From NCBI GenBank assembly GCA_963733375.1, contig CAVTDB010000003.1:256001-320000 (forward strand): DNA of 64,000 nt. Reading direction: 5' to 3'. A program made the position numbers and the translations under genes. Below are positions 7,664-19,749 of the stretch, piece by piece; the first letter of the stretch is position 1; each line of letters starts with the position of its first letter. Source of the DNA: Nitrospirota bacterium. Its GTDB lineage: Bacteria > Nitrospirota > JACRHJ01. The notes beneath the pieces were generated by a model that was not told where the DNA came from, did not search any database, and saw only the letters and a program-made list of their open reading frames with translations.

Positions 7664-7765
7664 GTGAAACAAAAATGTATGCCAATTTTGTAGTCATGCT
7701 CAAAAATTAGATTTATTCTTGTTTTCCCGTGGGTTACGCGGGTAACACACTGGTGTGCCTCCTCC

Positions 7766-7781
7766 TGGCACGGACTTTGTA
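7766..7781 (+). promoter_or_regulatory. sigma54 (-24/-12) promoter of amtB2-glnK2
   Basis: TGGCACGGACTTTGTA. Confidence 0.8.
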
Positions 7782-7858
7782 ATAAAGCCCGACAGGGACA
7801 GGTTTAACTTCGGCCGGCAAGACGCCTTGGCTGAAATTAGCGAGGAGGAGAAAAAACA

Positions 7859-9542
<1,684 letters not shown>

Positions 9543-9544
9543 AA

Positions 9545-9652
9545 ACCTTGTTACTTTCTTTTGCGAAAAAGAAAGTAACACAAAGAAAACGGGACTTAAA
9601 AACAGTCTAAAAGTTTTTGGCGTTACCTTTTTACCAAAAAGGTAACAAAGGT
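9545..9652. repeat. Family A element, copy 2
   Basis: GTTACTTTCTTTT-gcga-AAAAGAAAGTAAC…AAAAGTTTTTGGCGTTACCTTTTT-acc-AAAAAGGTAAC, after the glnK2 TAA. Confidence 0.9.
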
Positions 9653-9688
9653 CTAAGATGCACGTAAAAGAGATCATCCGGCGTAAAG

Positions 9689-10027
9689 GTGGCCATAACG
9701 GAGGACCGGGCCTACAAGCCCGCGTCCCCCGGCCTCCCCGCCAGAAGATACTATCTGGAAACCGAGTCCTACAGGTGGAGCGTATTCCTCTGGGAGTACG
9801 AGCTGAAGGAAACCGGCACGCCTCTTTTTTGCGCGAAGGCGGACGAAGGCTTCTCCGCGTACGGCTTCACGAGGAACGAGGCCATAAACGGCATAGCCTC
9901 CATCATGGGAAGGCAGGTCCGCGCCTTCGCCTTATCAAAGCAGGAAATCAGCCTGGAGAAGGTGCGGCACTACCTGGACAAATCGGACGTGGAACGCGAA
10001 TCCAAAAAACCCCGCCGCAGGAAATAG
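9689..10027 (+). CDS. Hypothetical protein
   Basis: 112-aa ORF filling the gap before tpiA, with host-like codon usage; no motif recognised. Confidence 0.55.
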   Translation: MAITEDRAYKPASPGLPARRYYLETESYRWSVFLWEYELKETGTPLFCAKADEGFSAYGFTRNEAINGIASIMGRQVRAFALSKQEISLEKVRHYLDKSDVERESKKPRRRK

Positions 10028-10074
10028 CAATCCCCCGCCTCCTTATGCAGGTTACTGTAACACGTTGTTTTGTC

Positions 10075-10103
10075 TTGACAGAAAACCCCAAAAATAATAG
10101 ACT
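10075..10103 (+). promoter_or_regulatory. sigma70 promoter of tpiA
   Basis: TTGACA-N17-TAGACT ending 8 nt before the ATG. Confidence 0.6.
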
Positions 10104-10111
10104 CAACCGTT

Positions 10112-10873
10112 ATGGTCCGAAAACCTGTCATAGCCGGAAACTGGAAGATGCATCTTACGGTCCCAGAAGCACTGGAGCTGGTTCGGGGCATTATTTCCTC
10201 GTGTTCCGGGAAGACCGGGGTCGAGGTGGTGATAGGCCCGCCCTTTACCGCGCTCCACGCAACTTCTTGCGAGATAAAGGGAAAAGGCATAGGCCTTGCC
10301 GCCCAGAACATGCATTACGAGCCGAAAGGGGCGTTTACCGGCGAGATTTCCGCCCCCATGCTGATAGACGCCGGATGCACGCACGTCATCATCGGCCACT
10401 CCGAGCGCAGGCAGTATTTCTGCGAGACGGACGAAGGGGTAAATAAGAAGGTAAAGACGGCGCTCGCGGCTCGGTTGACCCCAATCATGTGCGTCGGCGA
10501 AACCTTGGCCGAGAGGGAATCCGGCTTAGCGTTCAAGGTAATAGAAACCCAGTTAAATGGCGGCGTTGCCGGGCTGACGCCTGAGCAGGCCGAGAAAATA
10601 ATCGTGGCCTACGAGCCGGTCTGGGCGATAGGGACGGGCAAGACCGCGTCGCCCGAGCAGGCGCAGGAAGTCCATAAGTTCATCCGGGAAAAATTATTGG
10701 GCACATTCGGAGAGAACGCCGCATCCAGGGTTCGGGTGCTGTACGGCGGGAGCGTAAAGCCCGATAATGTCAAGAGTTTAATGGCAATGGAAGACATCGA
10801 CGGCGCCCTGGTGGGCGGCGCATGTTTAAAGGCGGACTCCTTTTCCGCCCTCGTTAATTATTCGGAGGTATAG
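10112..10873 (+). CDS. tpiA: Triosephosphate isomerase
   Basis: IAGNWKM, IIGHSERR, AYEPVWAIGTG, YGGSV and LVGGA. Confidence 0.97.
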   Translation: MVRKPVIAGNWKMHLTVPEALELVRGIISSCSGKTGVEVVIGPPFTALHATSCEIKGKGIGLAAQNMHYEPKGAFTGEISAPMLIDAGCTHVIIGHSERRQYFCETDEGVNKKVKTALAARLTPIMCVGETLAERESGLAFKVIETQLNGGVAGLTPEQAEKIIVAYEPVWAIGTGKTASPEQAQEVHKFIREKLLGTFGENAASRVRVLYGGSVKPDNVKSLMAMEDIDGALVGGACLKADSFSALVNYSEV

Positions 10874-10879
10874 GGTATA

Positions 10880-11207
10880 ATGGTTACTTTTCTTATGATA
10901 ATTCATGTAATTGTCTGTCTGGCTGTCGTGCTGGTAGTCCTTCTCCAGCAAGGTAAAGGGGCCAGCGTCGGCGCGACTTTCGGCACGGGCGGCTCTCAGA
11001 CCGTATTCGGAAGCCGTGGCGCGGGCAATTTCCTGACGAAGCTTACGGCGGCCGCCGGCGCGATATTCATGATTACCTCTCTTGCGCTTGCAATACTCGA
11101 ATCGCACGGCACGAGTGCCTCGATAGTCAAGGACGCCTTCCGGGAATGCGGCGACGGCTCCCTCCACCGCCGGTCAACCGGCCCCGGCGCAGAAAGGCGG
11201 CAAATAA
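10880..11207 (+). CDS. secG: Preprotein translocase subunit SecG (C-terminal frameshift)
   Basis: VLLQQGKG…FG.GGSQTVFGSRG; tpiA-secG synteny; likely true stop TAA at 11205-11207. Confidence 0.85.
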
Positions 11208-11303
11208 GCCGTTACTTTTCTTTCGCAGAAAGAAAGGCGGCCAAAAGAAAGCTGGACAGTTTAAAAGTTTTTGGCGTTACCTTTTTACTAAAAAGGTAAC
11301 GGT
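11208..11303. repeat. Family A element, copy 3
   Basis: CCGTTACTTTTCTTTC-gca-GAAAGAAAGG…AAAAGTTTTTGGCGTTACCTTTTT-act-AAAAAGGTAACGG, after the inferred secG TAA. Confidence 0.9.
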
Positions 11304-11306
11304 TTT

Positions 11307-11336
11307 AGGGGGCTCTGATTTCGAGTCCCCTTTTTT
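11307..11336 (+). terminator. Intrinsic terminator after secG
   Basis: AGGGGGCTC-loop-GAGTCCCCT followed by a T-run. Confidence 0.6.
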
Positions 11337-11354
11337 GTCCTTGGGAGGTAATCA

Positions 11355-12953
11355 TTGAAAAGGGTTGCCGTATTGGCCTTGGGTTTATTTCTCCTGCTCT
11401 CGGCATGTGGTAAAAAACACGAAGAGGGGCTGGTCAGGGACCCGGATTACCTCACTGTCGCAATGGGCGCGGACGCCAAAAGGTTAATCCCGATGCTGGC
11501 GACCGATTCCGCCTCCGGAGACATATCCGGCCTGATTTTCCAGGGCCTGACGAAATACGACAAGGACATAAAGATTACCGGCGACCTGGCCGAAAACTGG
11601 GACGTATCGAAGGACGGGCTGGTGATAACCTTCCATCTGCGCAAGAACGTGAAGTGGCAGGACGGAAAGCCTTTTACCGCGGACGACGTACTCTTTACCT
11701 ACAAGGTCCTGAAAGACCCGAATACGGCGACACCTTACAGCGATACGCTGGGGCCTGTCGATAAAGTCGAGGCGCTGGACCCGTACACCGTCAGGGTAAC
11801 GTACAAGGAGCCGTTCGCCCCGGCCCTGGAGGCATGGGGGATGGGCGTCATACCGAAGCACCTCCTGGCGGGTAAGGACATAAACAAGGACCCGTTCAAC
11901 CGGCATCCCATAGGGACGAACATGTTCAAGTTCGGCGAGTGGATTACCGGGAACAGGATAGTCCTGGACGCATATGACGATTACTTCGAGGGCAGGCCGC
12001 ATATCGACAAGTACGTCTCCCGCATCCTCCCGGAACAGGCGACGCAATTCCTGGAGTTAAAGACCGGCGGGATAGATCTTATGAACCTCACTCCCATGCA
12101 ATATTCAAGAGAGACCGATACTCCGGAGATAAAGCATCGGTTCAATAAAATCCGCTATCCCGCTTTTGCCTATGATTACCTGGGCTATAACCTGACCAAT
12201 CCCCTGTTCAAGGACAAGCGCGTACGCCAGGCGCTATCATACGCGATAGACCAGAAGGGTATAATACAGGGCGTGCTTTTAGGCCTTGGCACGCCTTGCA
12301 CCGGCCCGTTCCCGCCGGAGTCCTGGGCGTTCAACAAGGACGTGAAGGGATATCCCTACGACCCGGAAAAGGCTAAGGCTATGCTGAAGGAGGCTGGCTG
12401 GACGCCTGGGCCGGACGGGGTGCTGACAAAGGACGGGAAGACTTTCACGTTTACGATACTGGTGAACCAGGCGAACAAACAGCGCCAGATGGCGGCGGAG
12501 ATTATCCAGCAGGACCTGGCCAAGGTCGGCGTCCACGTGGAAATAACCGCGCTGGAATGGCAGGCGCTCCTGCACGACTTCATAGACAAAAAGCGATTCG
12601 AGGCGCTCATCATGGGCTGGGGATTAGGCCGAGACCCCGACTCCTATGATATGTGGTATTCCAAGAAAACCAAGGAAGGTGAATTCAACTTCATAAGCTA
12701 TAATAATCCGGAAGTGGACAAGCTTTTAATCCAGGGCCGGCAGACGTTCGACATCGGGAAGCGGAAGGAGATATATCACCGCATCCACGCGATATTATCG
12801 GACGACGCGCCCTATACCTTCCTGTACGTACCCGACGCCCTGCCGATAATCCATAAACGCTTTAAAGGCGTGAAGAAGGAGCCGCTCGGGATATTCTATA
12901 ATTTAAAGGACTGGTACGTGCCGAGGAACCCGGGAGAATGGTATACACAATAG
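11355..12953 (+). CDS. Peptide ABC transporter substrate-binding lipoprotein (SBP family 5, AppA-like)
   Basis: Lipobox LSAC; LAENW…TFHLRKNVKWQDG.PFTADDV; KRVRQALSYAID. Confidence 0.9.
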   Translation: MKRVAVLALGLFLLLSACGKKHEEGLVRDPDYLTVAMGADAKRLIPMLATDSASGDISGLIFQGLTKYDKDIKITGDLAENWDVSKDGLVITFHLRKNVKWQDGKPFTADDVLFTYKVLKDPNTATPYSDTLGPVDKVEALDPYTVRVTYKEPFAPALEAWGMGVIPKHLLAGKDINKDPFNRHPIGTNMFKFGEWITGNRIVLDAYDDYFEGRPHIDKYVSRILPEQATQFLELKTGGIDLMNLTPMQYSRETDTPEIKHRFNKIRYPAFAYDYLGYNLTNPLFKDKRVRQALSYAIDQKGIIQGVLLGLGTPCTGPFPPESWAFNKDVKGYPYDPEKAKAMLKEAGWTPGPDGVLTKDGKTFTFTILVNQANKQRQMAAEIIQQDLAKVGVHVEITALEWQALLHDFIDKKRFEALIMGWGLGRDPDSYDMWYSKKTKEGEFNFISYNNPEVDKLLIQGRQTFDIGKRKEIYHRIHAILSDDAPYTFLYVPDALPIIHKRFKGVKKEPLGIFYNLKDWYVPRNPGEWYTQ

Positions 12954-13032
12954 AAGCGGGCATATTTGCGAGCGGACATTTACCCGAAGGACCCTTCCGA
13001 GAGCGAGCAAATGATGCCTGCTTTAAATAAAT

Positions 13033-14010
13033 ATGTCTAATATCTCTGTAAATTCGTTAGTCAAAAAGTACGGCTCCCTGACCGCGGTGGACGGCATATC
13101 GTTCGAGGTCGCGCCGGGCGAGGTATTCGGTTTTCTCGGGCCGAACGGGGCGGGGAAATCCACCACCATATCCATCCTCTGCACGCTTCTGTCCCCCACT
13201 TCAGGCCATGCCTCCGTGGGGGGTTTCGACTGCGTGAGGGACGCGGACTCCGTGCGCCGCTCCATAGGGATAATCTTTCAGGACCCGACGCTCGACAACG
13301 GCCTGACTGCTTATGAAAACCTTCTTTTCCACGCATACCTCTACGGTCTGGACAGGGTAACGGCGAAAAAGAGAATAGAGGACGCGATTTCGTTAGTCGG
13401 CCTCTCCGCCAGGAAGAACGAGCTTGTGCGGAGGTTCTCCGGCGGCATGAAAAGGCGGCTGGAGATAGCGCGCGGCATCTTGAATTACCCCAAGGTGCTG
13501 TTCATGGACGAGCCTACTCTGGGACTCGACCCGCAGACCAGAAACATGATATGGGAATTCATACGCGAGCTGAAAAAGACCACCGGCATTACCGTATTTA
13601 TGACCACCCATTACCTGGAAGAGGCGGAGTTCTGCGACAGGATTGCGATAATCGACCTGGGTAAGATTATCGCGTCCGGGACCCCGGCCGAGCTGAAGTC
13701 CGGGCTTCACGGCGATACCTTGAAACTCTCCGCCGACGACCCGAAGGTCTTGGCGTCGGAGCTTCGGGAGAAATTTCAAATGGAGCCGAGATTAACCGAC
13801 GGCGGCGTTACCCTCACGGTGGAGAAGGGGGAAGAGGTGCTGCCGGTACTGATAAAAGGACTCTCCACCCGGATTACCTCCGTCAGCATGACCCGGCCCA
13901 CCTTGAACGACGTATTCTTAAGCCTGACGGGCAAGAGCATACGCGAAGAGAACTCCGACCCTTACGGCCCCATGCGTTCCTACGCCCGCAAGGCCTCCGG
14001 GAGGCATTGA
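13033..14010 (+). CDS. ABC-2 exporter ATP-binding protein (DrrA/NodI-like)
   Basis: GPNGAGKST, FSGGMKRR, DEPT and TTH. Confidence 0.92.
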   Translation: MSNISVNSLVKKYGSLTAVDGISFEVAPGEVFGFLGPNGAGKSTTISILCTLLSPTSGHASVGGFDCVRDADSVRRSIGIIFQDPTLDNGLTAYENLLFHAYLYGLDRVTAKKRIEDAISLVGLSARKNELVRRFSGGMKRRLEIARGILNYPKVLFMDEPTLGLDPQTRNMIWEFIRELKKTTGITVFMTTHYLEEAEFCDRIAIIDLGKIIASGTPAELKSGLHGDTLKLSADDPKVLASELREKFQMEPRLTDGGVTLTVEKGEEVLPVLIKGLSTRITSVSMTRPTLNDVFLSLTGKSIREENSDPYGPMRSYARKASGRH

Positions 14011-14780
14011 TGGCTAATCTTTCGCACGAGCTTAAGGCGATATACGTCATCTCCTTCCGGGAGCTTCGGAAGTTCATCCGGGAAAGAAGCCGCATAATGG
14101 GTACGATGGCCCGGCCAATATTGTGGCTTTTCGTGTTGGGCGGCGGGATGGGCAGGATAGTCACCCTCCCCGGCGGCGGCATAACTTACACACAGTTTCT
14201 TTTTCCCGGGATATTGGGCTTTACTATCCTCTTCGCGTCCATATTCTCCGCCATATCGATTGTCTGGGACAGGGAGTTCGGATTTTTAAAGGAGATACTG
14301 GTCGCGCCCATCTCCAGGTTTTCGGTCGTCGCCGGCAAGGCTATGGCCGGTACGTCCATATCCCTGTTCCAGGTATTGATCATGTCTGTTTTTATCCCGG
14401 TACTGGGAATAAAAATAGGTTTTGTCCAATTCCTGCTGCTGTTGATGTCGGCGGGACTGCTTGCTTTTTCGATGACCTGTTTCGGGATACTTGTAGCTGC
14501 GAGCATGCGCTCCTATGAAGGGTTCAACGTAGTAATGAATTTAATCGTCATGCCGATGTACTTTCTGTCAGGCGCGATGTATCCGATAAAGCGTCTGCCC
14601 TCCGTGCTTAAGGAGCTTACCCGCGCAAATCCTTTGACATATGGAATAGACGCGATGAAGAACATATTGGGCGCTTCTTTCAGGCCTGAGTATCCTATCT
14701 TTGTTGACCTTGCGGTGTTAATAGGGTTTTTGGCCGTAACCGCCACATTGGCTAATTTATCTTTCAGGAGAGCGGCCTGA
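14007..14780 (+). CDS. ABC-2 type permease
   Basis: Six TM helices, DREFGFLKE, FLSGA.YP, NPLTY; overlaps the ATPase stop. Confidence 0.9.
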   Translation: MMANLSHELKAIYVISFRELRKFIRERSRIMGTMARPILWLFVLGGGMGRIVTLPGGGITYTQFLFPGILGFTILFASIFSAISIVWDREFGFLKEILVAPISRFSVVAGKAMAGTSISLFQVLIMSVFIPVLGIKIGFVQFLLLLMSAGLLAFSMTCFGILVAASMRSYEGFNVVMNLIVMPMYFLSGAMYPIKRLPSVLKELTRANPLTYGIDAMKNILGASFRPEYPIFVDLAVLIGFLAVTATLANLSFRRAA

Positions 14781-14783
14781 GGA

Positions 14784-14812
14784 TTGACTTCCCGTCCCCG
14801 GTGGCTTACAAT
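14784..14812 (+). promoter_or_regulatory. sigma70 promoter of thiF
   Basis: TTGACT-N17-TACAAT, 9 nt before ATG 14822. Confidence 0.6.
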
Positions 14813-14821
14813 TTTAATATC

Positions 14822-15628
14822 ATGGTTCGATTAAAAGTAAATGAGCGGTTCGTGGAATTCAAGGAGCCGCCGAAGCTTATGGAGGTCCGCGCCAAGTATA
14901 AACCCGGCTCGGACCTTACTATTTTAAACGGCTTCCCCACCCAGGAAAACCCTGTCCTGCACGATGGAGATAACATCGTGTTCATAAGGAAAGGGGCCAT
15001 GCCTTCCAGGGAAGAACTGGAGGCCCTTATGACGGCGCGCCATACCCCGGGCGTGCACGAGGTGGTCAAGAAGGCGCGGGTCGGGGTAGCGGGGCTCGGA
15101 GGGCTTGGCTCGGTCGTCGCCGTGGCCCTGGCAAGGCTTGGAGTCGGCGAACTGGTCATCGTGGACTATGACATGGTGGAACCGAGCAACTTGAACCGGC
15201 AGCAGTATTTCATAGACCAGATAGGGAAGCCCAAGACGGAGGCGATGGAAGAAAACCTCCGCAGGATCAATCCCTACGTAAAGGTATCGTCGCACAAGAC
15301 GGTCCTGACGGAAAAGAATATCCCGGAATATTTCTGCAAGGTAAGCGTGCTGGTCGAGGCGTTCGACAAGGCGGAGGCGAAGGCGATGCTCTTGAATACC
15401 ATGGCCGAGCACTGTCCGGACGTGCCGGTGGTGACCGCCTCCGGCGTGGCGGGGCATGGGCCTTCCAATTCGATAAAGACAATGCCGTTCGGCAAATATT
15501 TCATAGTCGGCGACCAGGAGTCGGAGGCGGCGGCAGGCCAGGGGCTGATGGCGCCCAGGGTAGGCATCGCGGCGCACCACCAGGCAAATTGCGTGCTTAG
15601 AATTTTATTGGGTGAACCGGGAGAATAA
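14822..15628 (+). CDS. thiF: ThiS adenylyltransferase with N-terminal ThiS-like domain
   Basis: ARHTPG, GLGGLGS, DYDMVEPSNLNRQ, MAPRV…HQAN. Confidence 0.9.
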   Translation: MVRLKVNERFVEFKEPPKLMEVRAKYKPGSDLTILNGFPTQENPVLHDGDNIVFIRKGAMPSREELEALMTARHTPGVHEVVKKARVGVAGLGGLGSVVAVALARLGVGELVIVDYDMVEPSNLNRQQYFIDQIGKPKTEAMEENLRRINPYVKVSSHKTVLTEKNIPEYFCKVSVLVEAFDKAEAKAMLLNTMAEHCPDVPVVTASGVAGHGPSNSIKTMPFGKYFIVGDQESEAAAGQGLMAPRVGIAAHHQANCVLRILLGEPGE

Positions 15629-15728
15629 ACCGTTACTTTCTTTTGCGAAAAAGAAAAGTAACACAAAGAAAACGGGAACAAGTTTAAAAGTTTTTGGCGT
15701 TACCTTTTTCCCAAAAAGGTAACAAGTT
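15629..15728. repeat. Family A element, copy 4
   Basis: Same two hairpins, directly after the thiF TAA. Confidence 0.9.
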
Positions 15729-15750
15729 TTAGGTTTTTCGGAGGCGGTTT

Positions 15751-17108
15751 GTGAAAGATATTTTAAACGACGTGGAGGCCGCGCTTAAAGAGGCGAAGGC
15801 TCCTTCCCGTCTGGAAGTTGACGCGATCCTCGCTCGCGCGGGTGAGCTTAAGGGGTTGTCCATCCGGGACGCGGCTGCGCTTTTGATGGCCGAAGACGAA
15901 GACACGGTAGCGGCCATCCGCGAAAAAGCGGCGGAAGTGAAGGAGGCTGTATTCGGCCCGCGCGTGGTGCTTTTCGCCCCGTTGTATTTATCGAATTACT
16001 GCTCCAACGACTGCCTGTACTGCGGTTTCAGGAAGTCCAATTCCCTGGCCCGCAGAAAAGCCCTGTCTCCGGACGAAGCGGTGGAGCAGGCGAAAATCCT
16101 GTCACGGATGGGTTTCAAGAGGATTATCCTGGTGGCGGGCGAGCACCCGCGCCATTCCGGGGTCGATTATTTAGTTGAAGTCGCGCGCGAAATTTACTCC
16201 CGGACGGACGTGAGGATACTGCACGTGAACTCCGCCCCGGTTTCGGTGGAGGATTTCAGGAAAATCAAGGCGGCGGGTTACGGCGTGTATCAATGCTTTC
16301 AGGAGACCTACCACAGGGAAAGCTATAAATTTTTGCACCCGACCGGCAAAAAATCGGATTTCCTCTACCGGCTGTCCGCGATGGACAGGGCGCTCGAAGC
16401 GGGTTTCGGCGACGTGGGGATAGGGCCGCTTCTGGGCCTGTACGATTACCATTACGACGCCCTGGCGGCAATAGCCCACTCGAAGCACCTGGAGGCGACC
16501 TTCGGCGCTAGCGCCCATACCATTTCCGTGCCGCGCCTGCGTCCGGCGGAAGGCGCCGGGATTAAGGACGCCCCTTATCCCGTCAGCGACGAAGAGTTTA
16601 AAAAGGTAGTCGCGGTATACCGCCTTTCCGTCCCGCAGGCGGGGGTGGTGATATCCACGCGCGAACCGGCGAAGCTCCGGGAAGAATCCCTGTCTTGCGG
16701 CGCGTCCCAGATATCCGCCGGCTCATCGACCGAGCCGGGAGGCTATGACAAGGGCGACCATAGCACGGCGCAGTTCGACTTAGCGGACCACCGCCCGCTT
16801 AATGAAATGGTGAGGATAATCGCTGAGGCGGGGCTTCTGCCGTCGCTTTGCACGGCCTGTTACCGGAGCGGAAGGCAGGGGCCGGATTTTCTGAATACGG
16901 CCTCGTCCGGGAAACTGAAAGAACTCTGTACGGCAAACGCGCTTCTGTCGTTAAAGGAATACCTGCTGGACGTGGGGCCGGACGGGCGGGAGAGACGTCG
17001 AGGCCGCGCTTGAAAGTTTCCTGGACGGATTCACAGGACCTCTTCGGGAAGACCTGAAACAGAAAATGGAAATGATTCAAGGAAGGCAAGAGAGATATAC
17101 ATTACTAG
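15751..17108 (+). CDS. HydG/ThiH-family radical SAM tyrosine lyase with HydG-type C-terminus (frameshifts near 16990-17075)
   Basis: APLYLSNYCSNDCLYC, FQETYH, HTISVPR, and CTAC-X22-C; GKRDIHY* in another frame ends at 17108. Confidence 0.85.
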
Positions 17109-17143
17109 AGCCCGCGGCTTGACTATCTGCCTTTCAAAAAGAC

Positions 17144-17172
17144 TTGATTATCTCAAAATCGCCAATTATAAT
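17144..17172 (+). promoter_or_regulatory. sigma70 promoter of thiS
   Basis: TTGATT-N17-TATAAT, 7 nt before ATG 17180. Confidence 0.6.
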
Positions 17173-17179
17173 CCAAGAC

Positions 17180-17383
17180 ATGAGAATTTCCGTAAACGGC
17201 GAGCCGCTTGAGACCAGCCCGGACGTGGGGACGGTGGGGGAGCTTTTATGCTCCCTGGGGCTATCCGAGCGGCGTGTGGCCGTGGAGCACAACCGGGTGA
17301 TACTCCCCAAAAACGCTTACGCCGAAACCGCGATAAGCGAGGGAGACGCGCTCGAAATCCTCAGCTTCGTCGGCGGCGGCTGA
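17180..17383 (+). CDS. thiS: Sulfur carrier protein
   Basis: MRISVNGE…VAVEHN…EGDALEILSFVGGG with C-terminal GG. Confidence 0.92.
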   Translation: MRISVNGEPLETSPDVGTVGELLCSLGLSERRVAVEHNRVILPKNAYAETAISEGDALEILSFVGGG

Positions 17384-17486
17384 CCGGCTGAGCCGGGGGG
17401 GGCCGGGGGCAGGGGCGCGCGTGGATGCAGGCATGGCGCTGACACGCACCGCCTGAAAAATCCTCAGCTTCGTCGGCGGCGGCTGA
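17355..17486. repeat. 29-bp direct repeat (thiS 3' end / rlmD-like 3' end) flanking a 74-bp G-rich spacer
   Basis: AAATCCTCAGCTTCGTCGGCGGCGGCTGA at 17355-17383 and 17458-17486. Confidence 0.9.
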
Positions 17487-18699
17487 GCAGGGCGAAGGCC
17501 TCGATATGGTACGTCTGCGGGAAGAAATCCACCATCCGTAAAGATTCCACTGAATAGTCGTCTTGAAATTTATTTAAGTCTCGGGCTAACGTCGCGGGGT
17601 TGCAGGATACGTAGGCAATCATGCCCGGCATAATTGACAGAATTTTCCCGATACCCGCCTCCGATATGCCCGCGCGTGGCGGGTCCGCTATAACGGCATC
17701 GAACTTCTCACGGATGTTAAAACCGTCCACGCTTACGCTGACGAACTGGCAGTTCTCAATTTTATTCAGCTTCACGTTCTCTTTTCCGTCTTTGACGGAA
17801 GACCGCCCCTCCTCCACCGCGACCACCTTCCGGGCTAGGCGCGAGACGGGCAGCGAGAAATTTCCAGCGCCTGCATAGAGGTCGAGCACGGCCTTTCCCG
17901 CAACCGGTTTCAGACTTTCAAGTACGAGGTCAACAAGGGCGCGGTTAAGGCTCCAGTTGGCCTGGAAAAAACTCTCGGACGAAACGGAATATTTTATACC
18001 GTCCAGTTCGAGGTTCAATTTACCGGCCCCGAAATGCAGCGGCTGTTTCCCTTCGATCTCCACGCGGACTCCCGAAAAACCCCCGCCCAGCAAATCCTTC
18101 GAAACATCCTTCCAGACATGCCTGGTGGAGGACGGGACTTTTATCAGCGCGAGGGTTTTATCACCACGGCAGATATGCAGCTCCTGAGCGTCCGTGTTTT
18201 TAAGGAGCCTTTTCGCATTTATGAAGACCTCGTTTATCTCATCGACCATCAGCGGGCAGGAGCTTATGTCCACCAGGTCCCGCGAGTGCTCCCTGAAATA
18301 GCCGACCCGCCCGCCTGATATTTTGAACTGGCCCCTGTGCCGGTAGTTCCAGGCTCTCCCCGTCAGCGGCTCGGAAAGGGATAACTCCATTTTCCCTATC
18401 CTCTTAAGCGCCGATTTCAGGACTTCCTCTTTCAGGCCTACCTGCATCGGGTATGAGGCATACTGGACCTGGCATCCGCCGCAGACGCCGAAGTAGGGGC
18501 AGGGAGGCTCCACCCGCTCAGGCGAGGGCTCCAAAATCTTCCGTGCAATGGCGACCGAATAGTCTTTTTTCTCATCGAGTACCTCCGCCTCCACGGTCTC
18601 GCCGGGGATAGCGCCCTTGAGCATCACCACTTTGCCGTCCAGCCTCGCCACGGTATAGCCGCCGTACGCGGGCGGACCTGCTGTAAGTTTTATTTTCAT
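17464..18699 (-). CDS. RlmD/TrmA-family RNA m5U methyltransferase
   Basis: TRAM domain, CPYFGVCGGC Fe-S motif, SFFQAN, DLYAGAG, DPPRAG, YVSCNPATLARD, DFFPQTYHIE. Confidence 0.9.
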   Translation of the reverse strand: MKIKLTAGPPAYGGYTVARLDGKVVMLKGAIPGETVEAEVLDEKKDYSVAIARKILEPSPERVEPPCPYFGVCGGCQVQYASYPMQVGLKEEVLKSALKRIGKMELSLSEPLTGRAWNYRHRGQFKISGGRVGYFREHSRDLVDISSCPLMVDEINEVFINAKRLLKNTDAQELHICRGDKTLALIKVPSSTRHVWKDVSKDLLGGGFSGVRVEIEGKQPLHFGAGKLNLELDGIKYSVSSESFFQANWSLNRALVDLVLESLKPVAGKAVLDLYAGAGNFSLPVSRLARKVVAVEEGRSSVKDGKENVKLNKIENCQFVSVSVDGFNIREKFDAVIADPPRAGISEAGIGKILSIMPGMIAYVSCNPATLARDLNKFQDDYSVESLRMVDFFPQTYHIEAFALLSRRRRS

Positions 18700-18735
18700 G
18701 GATTTTTATATACGATTAAATCGCCGGATTTCCGT

Positions 18736-18865
18736 ATTCCCGAATGATTTAATCCTATTTGTCCGTCATTCCCGAGATGATTTACCTGTCCAGAGCGATA
18801 GCGAAGACAGAATGATTTAATCGGGAATCCAGGGTTTGATTTAAATTCCCGGATTCCCGCTTTCG
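18736..18865. repeat. CGTC-type REP cluster with a 36-bp insertion (18775-18810)
   Basis: CGTCATTCCCG[36 bp]AATGATTTAATCGGGAATCCAG; an uninterrupted partial copy at 18736-18754; inverted half GGATTCCCGCTTTCG at 18851-18865. Confidence 0.85.
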
Positions 18866-18880
18866 TCCGAGTTTGCTGTC

Positions 18881-18984
18881 GGGGGGAGCATTCTCTCCGA
18901 AAAATTATTATTCACAATTTCGCTTTAAGCCGCGTGAGTTTTATTTTACGTTCAAGATAATTTTTCTCCGAGAACGCTCCCCCC
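18881..18984. repeat. Family C ~100-bp inverted-repeat element, copy 1
   Basis: GGGGGGAGCATTCTCTCCGAAAAATTAT…ATAATTTTTCTCCGAGAACGCTCCCCCC; homologous copy at 47428-47522. Confidence 0.8.
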
Positions 18985-19749
18985 TCCCTCTTGCCTCTTC
19001 CTTTGCCGCTCGTCGCGCATATCTTTTCGCCGGTCCCAGGCGGACGGGTCTTCCGAGGCGGTAAGCGCCTTCCCCACCACAATTATTTTGAAGGCGTCCT
19101 CGTCCGCGAACCACTCCGGGTCAACGTCCTTTGCAAGCCTCTCGATTGTGGTATTTATAATCCCCTCGCCCGGCAGGGAAATCCGCGAGACTATCGCGAC
19201 CGGCGTATCGGAGTTATATCCTTCCAGCAGCTCGTATGTCAACTCTTCCGGCCTTTTGTTATTCATGAAGAGCACCATCGTTGCCTGGTGCCTGGAGAGC
19301 GCCCCGATAGTATCGGGACTGCCCTCTACGGTCTTTGGGGATGTTGCGATGACGGAATGGGCTGCGCCGGAGATGACGAACGTCCTTTTAAGCGCCGCCG
19401 AGGCCGCGTTAAGAACGCCGACGCCCGGGATTACTTCCGCGTCCGGGTAACGCGCGATTATGGACTGCACGGGCGAGAAAATGGCCAGGTCTCCGGGCAC
19501 TAAAAATACCGCGTCTTGCCCCTTCGCCAGCACGGAATCGATCTTCTCTGTCAGCTCCTTAAAATGGAAATCGAACGGGTCGTAATATTCCTTGCCTTCA
19601 AGCAGCGCGGCATAAGAGTCCTTGAAATGTCCCGGCGCGAACACGAGCGAGGCATTTTTCAATACCTCCATCCCGCGCAAAGTCAGAAGCTCCGGGTCCC
19701 CCGGCCCCCCGCCCACGAACCACAGCTTGCCGCATATGCTGTCAGACAT
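18952..19749 (-). CDS. CobM/CbiF-like tetrapyrrole methyltransferase
   Basis: FVGGGPGDPELLTLRG, PGDLAIF, IPGV…AASA, TPVAIV. Confidence 0.75.
   Translation of the reverse strand: MSDSICGKLWFVGGGPGDPELLTLRGMEVLKNASLVFAPGHFKDSYAALLEGKEYYDPFDFHFKELTEKIDSVLAKGQDAVFLVPGDLAIFSPVQSIIARYPDAEVIPGVGVLNAASAALKRTFVISGAAHSVIATSPKTVEGSPDTIGALSRHQATMVLFMNNKRPEELTYELLEGYNSDTPVAIVSRISLPGEGIINTTIERLAKDVDPEWFADEDAFKIIVVGKALTASEDPSAWDRRKDMRDERQRKRQEGGGSVLGEKLS

Follow-up and report, generated by a model that had tools for sequence, protein, structure and literature searches.

We analyzed a 64,000-nucleotide stretch of DNA from a Nitrospirota bacterium (the window; G000:C3:256001-320000), whose own assembly comprises 2.39 Mb in 26 contigs at 81% completeness and 5% contamination. 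On the + strand of the window, an ATP-binding cassette (ABC) exporter pair is followed by thiF, a 105-nt repeat, a radical S-adenosylmethionine (SAM) gene, and thiS, and in the window's family thiF comes after an ABC exporter pair. The original prediction was that the radical SAM gene between thiF and thiS is of the HydG type rather than a plain thiH. This identification holds: The encoded protein carries the CX3CX2C motif, the HTISVPR histidine, and the C-terminal CTAC-X22-C motif, and it passes the HydG family model. The best explanation of the three genes is that they supply one half of bacterial thiazole (vitamin B1) synthesis, the half that yields the sulfur carrier and the glycine imine. 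The radical SAM protein is probably the 2-iminoacetate (dehydroglycine) synthase of this pathway, a tyrosine lyase in which the residues of the HydG auxiliary cluster have been retained.

The radical SAM cysteines of the lyase lie at C84-x3-C88-x2-C91 (CSNDCLYC, codons 16000-16023), and the C-terminal cysteines, counted by eye, at C367-x2-C370-x22-C393 (CTAC-X22-C, 16849-16929). The HTISVPR histidine is H256 (codon 16516-16518); it aligns with the HTISVPR histidine of the HydG structure 4wcx, and we take it to be the residue called 'His265' in HydG. The Cys and His motif positions are invariant columns in the alignment with relatives. With the NCBIfam HydG model (TIGR03955), the protein scored 423.5 bits against a cut-off of 312.15, despite being shortened as assembled. 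An intact relative, P0002, aligned over its full length to TiHydG 4wcx (428 bits, residues 10-457), with 362 bits to ChHydG 4rtb but only 189 bits to ThiH 7pd1. The names given to relatives differ, NCBI records calling them HydG and the JGI pipeline 2-iminoacetate synthase. The HydG model score itself separates the roles poorly: One thi-linked gene (locus L142) scores 616 bits and hydF-linked genes score 438-539 bits, and HydG-model scores in a sample of Bacillota genomes are widely spread.

To place the gene among its relatives, we confirmed 146 related loci and analyzed the best 80, chosen by likeness to the query. From these, 79 HydG-type open reading frames (ORFs) were recovered (L083 gave none); ORFs were clustered, and cluster representatives were compared with NCBIfam and Pfam. 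A tblastn search with the window ThiS found thiS in 68 of the 80 loci, in 62 of them at most ~0.5 kb downstream of the lyase gene. Within four ORFs of the HydG-type ORF, a thi gene was present in 68 of 79 cases, and hydE or hydF in 0 of 79. The remaining 11 had neither a thi nor a hyd neighbor; these lie on short contigs or have a thiF masked by ORF picking, and L018, L020, L022, and L023 do have thiF by tblastn. The neighbors were identified as ThiG (PF05690, 368 bits), ThiE, ThiC, and ThiS. The usual order is lyase-thiS-thiG-thiE-thiC, with lgt inserted in some 'Deltaproteobacteria' metagenome-assembled genomes (MAGs), and the order in the Moorella group is thiE-thiS-thiG-lyase. At the operon head of 11 of 12 more distant loci, we found a thiamine pyrophosphate (TPP) riboswitch (RF00059) above the Rfam gathering score: It is present in L031, L032, L035, L037, L042, L063, and L072, in L038 and L094 (ahead of a fused thiF), and in L115 and L142, and not in L051.

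L142 (genome G059, Bacillota) consists of the 616-bit HydG-type gene followed by thiS-thiG-thiC, with the TPP riboswitch ~1.1 kb upstream, in a genome without a HydA match; apparently a thi operon has here, independently and for a second time, come to use a HydG-type enzyme. In G016 of Nitrospirota family f6, one 770-aa open frame (L109:863-3172, -) holds ThiG together with a domain resembling ThiH (283 bits with the ThiH model, below its cut-off); ThiH and ThiG may be fused here, or the frame may be an assembly artifact.

HydG is defined by its partnership with HydA, HydE, and HydF, which we sought in 41 Nitrospirota genomes (the own assembly and 40 relatives), of which 32 reach a completeness of 90% or more. 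This partnership is absent here. The original prediction had noted that the window lacks hydA/E/F and thiG; none of them lies within its 64 kb, and none is found above cut-off in the assembly as a whole, including HydA (PF02906), HydE, and HydF. The same assembly holds a single HydG/ThiH-family gene. Among the 41 Nitrospirota genomes, HydA was found in none and HydF above cut-off in none, and HydE passed its cut-off in three, all in another family (f8), with 0 of 12 in the window's family. HydA was also absent from five of five further genomes carrying the gene, two of which are deposited as chromosome records. The Moorella group provides the case in which both kinds of gene coexist: HydA is present in five of five genomes, and each of the five has a HydG of 593-647 bits plus a thi-linked paralogue of 424-468 bits, with ThiH above cut-off in none (0/5). 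A hydE-like frame adjoins the HydG in four of the five, as judged from ORF context; in the fifth genome, the HydG is on a short contig. Where a hydrogenase needs HydG in this group, a separate gene does that job.

In the three family f8 genomes with HydE (G018, G034, and G026), a 906-aa ORF at L106:2700-5417 (+), L107:2786-5551 (-), and L108:2032-4900 (-) joins a HypC-like chaperone domain (residues 1-75, 45.8 bits against a cut-off of 48), HydE (348 bits), and HydG (607 bits). It stands directly after two genes, one resembling a [NiFe]-hydrogenase large subunit (ShyA-like; 294 bits, under the cut-off) and the other encoding a hydrogenase maturation protease, in genomes with no HydA and no HydF above cut-off. 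This fusion might supply a [NiFe]-type enzyme by a HydE/HydG route; among the papers listed by a literature search, nothing obvious concerned it.

Full-length ThiG is encoded in 37 of the 41 Nitrospirota genomes, both same-genus genomes included. ThiO passes its cut-off in seven of the 41, all seven without any HydG/ThiH match, and in 0 of 12 genomes of the window's family. Each genome of this family has one strong HydG/ThiH-family match, any others scoring not above ~25 bits. Thus, the long lyase is the only visible source of dehydroglycine in the family. Exactly one ThiS was found per genome in five of five genomes of the family, and the thiS of the window is the only ThiS in its assembly. 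Because the sole ThiS of the window's genus adjoins the lyase, ThiG must use that ThiS. The original prediction had offered, as its second option, a cofactor pathway pairing CO/CN chemistry with a thiocarboxylate carrier; this gained no support, as ThiG requires the only ThiS encoded and genes of the clade are under TPP control in relatives.

We placed the protein in a phylogeny together with hydE/hydF-linked HydGs (from the Moorella group and a sample of 61 Bacillota genomes), short thi-linked ThiHs of the Bacillota sample, E. coli ThiH, and Nitrospirota sequences from other families. The rows exclude duplicate loci as well as L016 (frameshifted), L110 (with an odd tail), and L106, L107, L109, and L111, whose ORFs are fused. 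In a quick 123-row IQ-TREE (LG+G4), the short ThiHs (8 rows) split from all long proteins with a support of 100. The window protein falls in an 80-row clade of 69 thi-linked, 11 no-context, and 0 hyd-linked rows (Shimodaira–Hasegawa-like approximate likelihood ratio test, SH-aLRT, 98), and a 29-row clade with a support of 95 holds 23 hyd-linked, 5 no-context, and 1 thi-linked row (L142). A 69-row tree under the LG+C20 posterior mean site frequency (PMSF) mixture model likewise gave a thi-linked clade, of 26 rows (SH-aLRT 99). The clade of the window protein is large and separate, and the hyd-linked HydGs are either its sister group or paraphyletic with it. The informative result is the gene context of the loci, not their clustering.

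These observations bear on the other option of the original prediction, in which a HydG had been repurposed as the source of dehydroglycine. The role stands, with the thi linkage, the TPP riboswitches, and the lack of another ThiH, ThiO, or HydA/E/F in its favor. The word 'repurposed' fares less well: The size and separateness of the clade exclude a local oddity or recent borrowing, and the branching order gives no direction of change. Three findings that had been named beforehand as telling against the role (a hydAEF set elsewhere in the genome, a position nested among canonical HydGs, and a thi linkage that is not conserved) did not appear.

The two clades share the auxiliary-site ligands and differ elsewhere. 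In alignment columns, the histidine and the three C-terminal cysteines are kept in 80/80 members of the thi-linked clade and 27/27 hyd-linked HydGs, and the histidine is found in 0/8 short ThiHs, which have I, V, or Y instead. The exact CX2CX22C spacing occurs in 78 of 79 ORFs, the exception being the frameshifted L016. Six signature positions (P0002 numbering) distinguish the thi-linked clade (n = 80) from the hyd-linked HydGs (n = 27), compared here with the short ThiHs (n = 8). Four of them carry R162, N164, T185, and I306 in HydG and I, H, V, and V in the thi-linked clade: position 162 is I in 78/80 against R in 27/27 (short ThiH mostly S, 7/8), position 164 is H in 80/80 against N in 27/27 (short ThiH mixed: S, G, Q, A), position 185 is V in 80/80 against T in 27/27 (short ThiH mostly G, 5/8), and position 306 is V in 80/80 against I in 27/27 (short ThiH mostly T, 5/8). 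At the other two, the thi-linked clade has the residue of ThiH: position 213 is R in 80/80 and in 8/8 short ThiHs against H in 23/27 hyd-linked HydGs, and position 169 is P in 77/80 and in 8/8 short ThiHs against A in 23/27. We infer that these positions line a HydG-type channel; we looked for named channel residues of HydG in PMC10114646 and PMC8162317 and found none. The long HydG-family proteins of L147/L160 and L154 (G064 and G091, Bacillota; 518 and 473 aa, 500-506 bits) have no CX2CX22C match by pattern and no hyd or thi neighbors, and they group with the hydF-linked L153.

By analogy with the known reactions of ThiH and HydG, we propose the following scheme. ThiF would adenylate the C-terminal glycine of ThiS, after which the thiocarboxylate would be formed. 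The radical SAM enzyme would cleave SAM at the CX3CX2C cluster and convert tyrosine to p-cresol and dehydroglycine (2-iminoacetate). ThiG, encoded elsewhere, would then receive the dehydroglycine and combine it with 1-deoxy-D-xylulose 5-phosphate (DXP) and the ThiS thiocarboxylate (ThiS-COSH) to give the thiazole. The review PMC10114646 describes roles for the Cys residues and the His in binding the HydG auxiliary cluster and dangler iron, proposes a HydG-specific channel as the place of 2-iminoacetate fragmentation, reports that HydG without its C-terminal domain is ThiH-like and releases 2-iminoacetate, and calls the fragmentation of dehydroglycine the last gray area of the HydG mechanism. 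Our guess is that the clade-specific changes on the barrel strands might prevent dehydroglycine from breaking down to CO and CN as it does in the HydG channel.

Several results weigh against the assignment as a thiazole enzyme. The protein fails the NCBIfam ThiH model (TIGR02351; 321.3 bits against a cut-off of 380), and as assembled it is truncated by frameshifts. The auxiliary-site ligands are invariant in 80/80 clade members though plain ThiH does not need them, and release of dehydroglycine to ThiG is an assumption, since the same site in HydG consumes it. A TPP riboswitch was found neither in the window nor in the close-clade loci (0/7), nor near thiG-thiE-thiC in genomes of the window's family (0/3), so it is gene content that carries the thiamine link in this family. 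The tree supports are quick-search SH-aLRT values, and formation of the clade is partly by construction, the 80 loci having been picked by likeness to the query. L142, thi-linked and TPP-regulated, nests in the hyd-linked clade, and clade and role therefore do not correspond one to one. Finally, orthologues of ThiG, ThiE, and ThiC are absent from the own assembly at its 81% completeness.

For the last of these, an assembly gap is the simplest reading because both same-genus genomes have thiG together with thiE and thiC away from the lyase. In the window's family the ancestral operon is split, with thiG-thiE-thiC together elsewhere (L112, L114, and L117), at a distance of 84 kb from the lyase in the sibling genome G002. 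The ~19 ORFs of G002:C7:31-46 kb all lack an orthologue in G000, the best matches being paralogues of 31-49% identity. Synteny between G000 and G002 reaches G000:C3:340.9 kb, and the contig ends at 346.85 kb. Just before this synteny break near the end of contig C3, and outside the window, lies a tandem repeat array with self-matches offset by ~435 nt (L161:5491-7652, equal to G000:C3:336.7-338.9 kb).

Coordinates of the locus are collected in Table 1. ThiF matches NCBIfam NF006395 (278 bits) and TIGR02354 (248 bits) and Pfam ThiF (122 bits), and a ThiS-like ubiquitin/beta-grasp domain (PF14453, 64 bits in Pfam) is fused at its residues 10-65. The same fused thiF stands directly upstream of the HydG-type gene in L016-L024, L038, L085, L092, and L094. 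With 15624-15750 as a blastn query, the repeat between thiF and the lyase gene gave 138 matches at E<=1e-5 in the 2.39-Mb assembly, and a second copy lies at 11203-11309 of the window. The copy in the thiF/lyase spacer stands in place of N-terminal lyase codons that are present in relatives.

Table 1. Features of the thiF-lyase-thiS locus, in window coordinates
Feature	Position	Strand	Remarks
ABC exporter pair	13033-14010 and 14007-14780	+	DrrA/DrrB-like, from NCBIfam matches of relatives
thiF (ThiS adenylyltransferase, family 2)	14822..15628	+	GTG at 14801 is an alternative start
Dispersed intergenic repeat between thiF and lyase gene	15624..15733	none	~105 nt, two hairpins
HydG-type radical SAM tyrosine lyase ('long ThiH'), as assembled	15751..17013	+	420 aa, GTG start, GGAGG ahead
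Remainder of lyase C-terminus	16993..17108	+	~37 residues, +1 then +2 frame; ...EAALESFLDGFTGPLREDLKQKMEMI / KEGKRDIHY*
thiS (sulfur carrier protein)	17180..17383	+	67 aa, ends GGG (Gly-Gly C-terminus); TIGR01683 70 bits

The truncation of the lyase raises the alternative that the window copy is a pseudogene in which the insertions are real and the last ~37 residues are lost. Close relatives have 451-459 aa, with GKRDVHY at the C-terminus. The tail can still be read in the window: the reading passes to the +1 frame at ~16993 and to the +2 frame at ~17079, and it terminates at a TAG (17106-17108). Alignment of the DNA to L016 shows that two single extra bases, near 16992-16996 and at 17078, shift the frame. 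That two +1 insertions fall within 90 bases speaks for a pseudogene, as does their absence both from proteins P0002-P0010 and from related-strain contigs of three public runs (88-95% alike). Also in its favor, the ORFs of the other genes along the ~10 kb of the window that we compared are intact, and thiG-thiE-thiC are missing from the assembly. The four public runs that we compared consist of contigs of relatives 88-97% alike and speak for relatives only; we found no public sequencing run with the source strain, no run sharing more than 0.16 of sampled words.

Against a pseudogene, two other versions of the lyase from long contigs are broken at different places: in G002 (locus L016), one base is inserted immediately ahead of the Cys motif, at a site other than those in the window, and P0011, on a 776-kb contig, is broken at both ends. 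Versions from short contigs are whole. Furthermore, comparison of window 7675-19292 with L016/L113 of G002 revealed dozens of single-base insertions or deletions (indels), several in conserved genes that are intact in the window. Gene calls in G002 are thus unreliable, and those in the window may be so in places. Because the pattern of one-base indels in G002 is typical of long-read consensus error, we consider the two insertions likely to be errors of this kind rather than decay, and regard a pseudogene as rather unlikely. We also considered a C-terminal domain decaying across the genus, as the three breaks of the window and L016 all lie in the last quarter of the gene; this idea was rejected because P0011 is also broken near its N-terminus, the indels of G002 extend to other genes, and copies from short contigs are intact.

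A second alternative is that the enzyme still makes CO and CN, or an Fe(CO)2(CN)-cysteine synthon, for some other metallocofactor or as a second activity, with or without a role as ThiH. The invariance of the His and three Cys (80/80) and the conservation of further C-terminal positions in both clades are compatible with this proposal, and the f8 HypC-HydE-HydG fusion beside a [NiFe]-hydrogenase makes HydG-type chemistry outside [FeFe]-hydrogenase conceivable in the phylum. However, a linked partner (HydE, HydF, or a fused chaperone) was found at 0 of 79 loci, regulation is by TPP, and barrel residues that are invariant in HydG are replaced throughout the clade. We therefore consider continued CO/CN production improbable. 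Least probable by a wide measure is that the protein acts as an ordinary HydG in maturing an [FeFe]-hydrogenase, with hydA/E/F in the unassembled 19% and thiF and thiS as coincidental neighbors: The protein does pass the HydG equivalog model with every HydG cluster ligand, NCBI names its relatives HydG, and the assembly is only 81% complete, but HydA and HydF are found in 0/41 genomes and HydE in 0/12 of the family, many of these relatives being 90-100% complete, the protein falls outside the hyd-linked clade, relatives conserve both thi linkage and TPP riboswitches, and Moorella-group genomes keep a separate hydE-linked HydG.

We return to the reading of the lyase as a 2-iminoacetate synthase, in which it combines features of two known systems. 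With HydG (TIGR03955) it shares the tyrosine lyase core, CX3CX2C, the HTISVPR histidine, CX2CX22C, and a C-terminal G-x-RD-x-Y tail; unlike HydG, it belongs to a clade of its own that never stands beside hydE or hydF, occurs in genomes without HydA/E/F, and is TPP-regulated in relatives. With ThiH (TIGR02351; E. coli b3990; 7pd1 from Thermosinus carboxydivorans) it shares the operon place beside thiS, thiG, thiF, thiE, and thiC, TPP riboswitch control (in more distant relatives), the radical SAM tyrosine lyase core, and R213 and P169. Short ThiH differs in its length of 366-384 aa and in having neither the C-terminal cluster domain nor the His; a long branch lies between the two, and the window protein falls below the ThiH cut-off. 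The neighboring ThiF and ThiS resemble ThiF family 2 and ThiS (TIGR02354, TIGR01683), scoring above the curated cut-offs, and the same thiF type occurs in thiS-thiG-thiH-thiF-thiE operons of Bacillota; unlike standard ThiF family 2, this ThiF has the fused beta-grasp domain, and in the window's family the thiF/thiS pair stands apart from thiG-thiE-thiC. The window copy is nothing out of the ordinary within its large clade and may be mis-assembled. A full-text literature search, with subscription journals largely outside its coverage, found no paper on thi-linked HydG-type enzymes.

Because the clade passes the HydG model in genomes without [FeFe]-hydrogenase, HydG matches used as a marker of hydrogenase maturation overcount it in Nitrospirota, in 'Deltaproteobacteria' MAGs, and in the Moorella group. 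Conversely, the thiazole pathway looks incomplete in these organisms when only short ThiH or ThiO is sought. A natural lyase that has all the auxiliary-site ligands of HydG but probably the job of ThiH provides a comparison for why HydG fragments dehydroglycine, and the clade bears on whether HydG grew from a two-cluster thiamine enzyme. More tentatively, and with the balance tilted against it at present, the thi-linked long clade could be a living intermediate between ThiH and HydG, with the auxiliary [4Fe-4S]/dangler-iron site functioning as part of a thiamine enzyme. If so, the cluster domain would have arisen or would persist in thiazole synthesis, where it would hold, hand over, or partly process dehydroglycine; hydrogenase maturation would have recruited an existing two-cluster tyrosine lyase; and a few barrel-lining residues would determine the fate of dehydroglycine, either release or cleavage to CO and CN.

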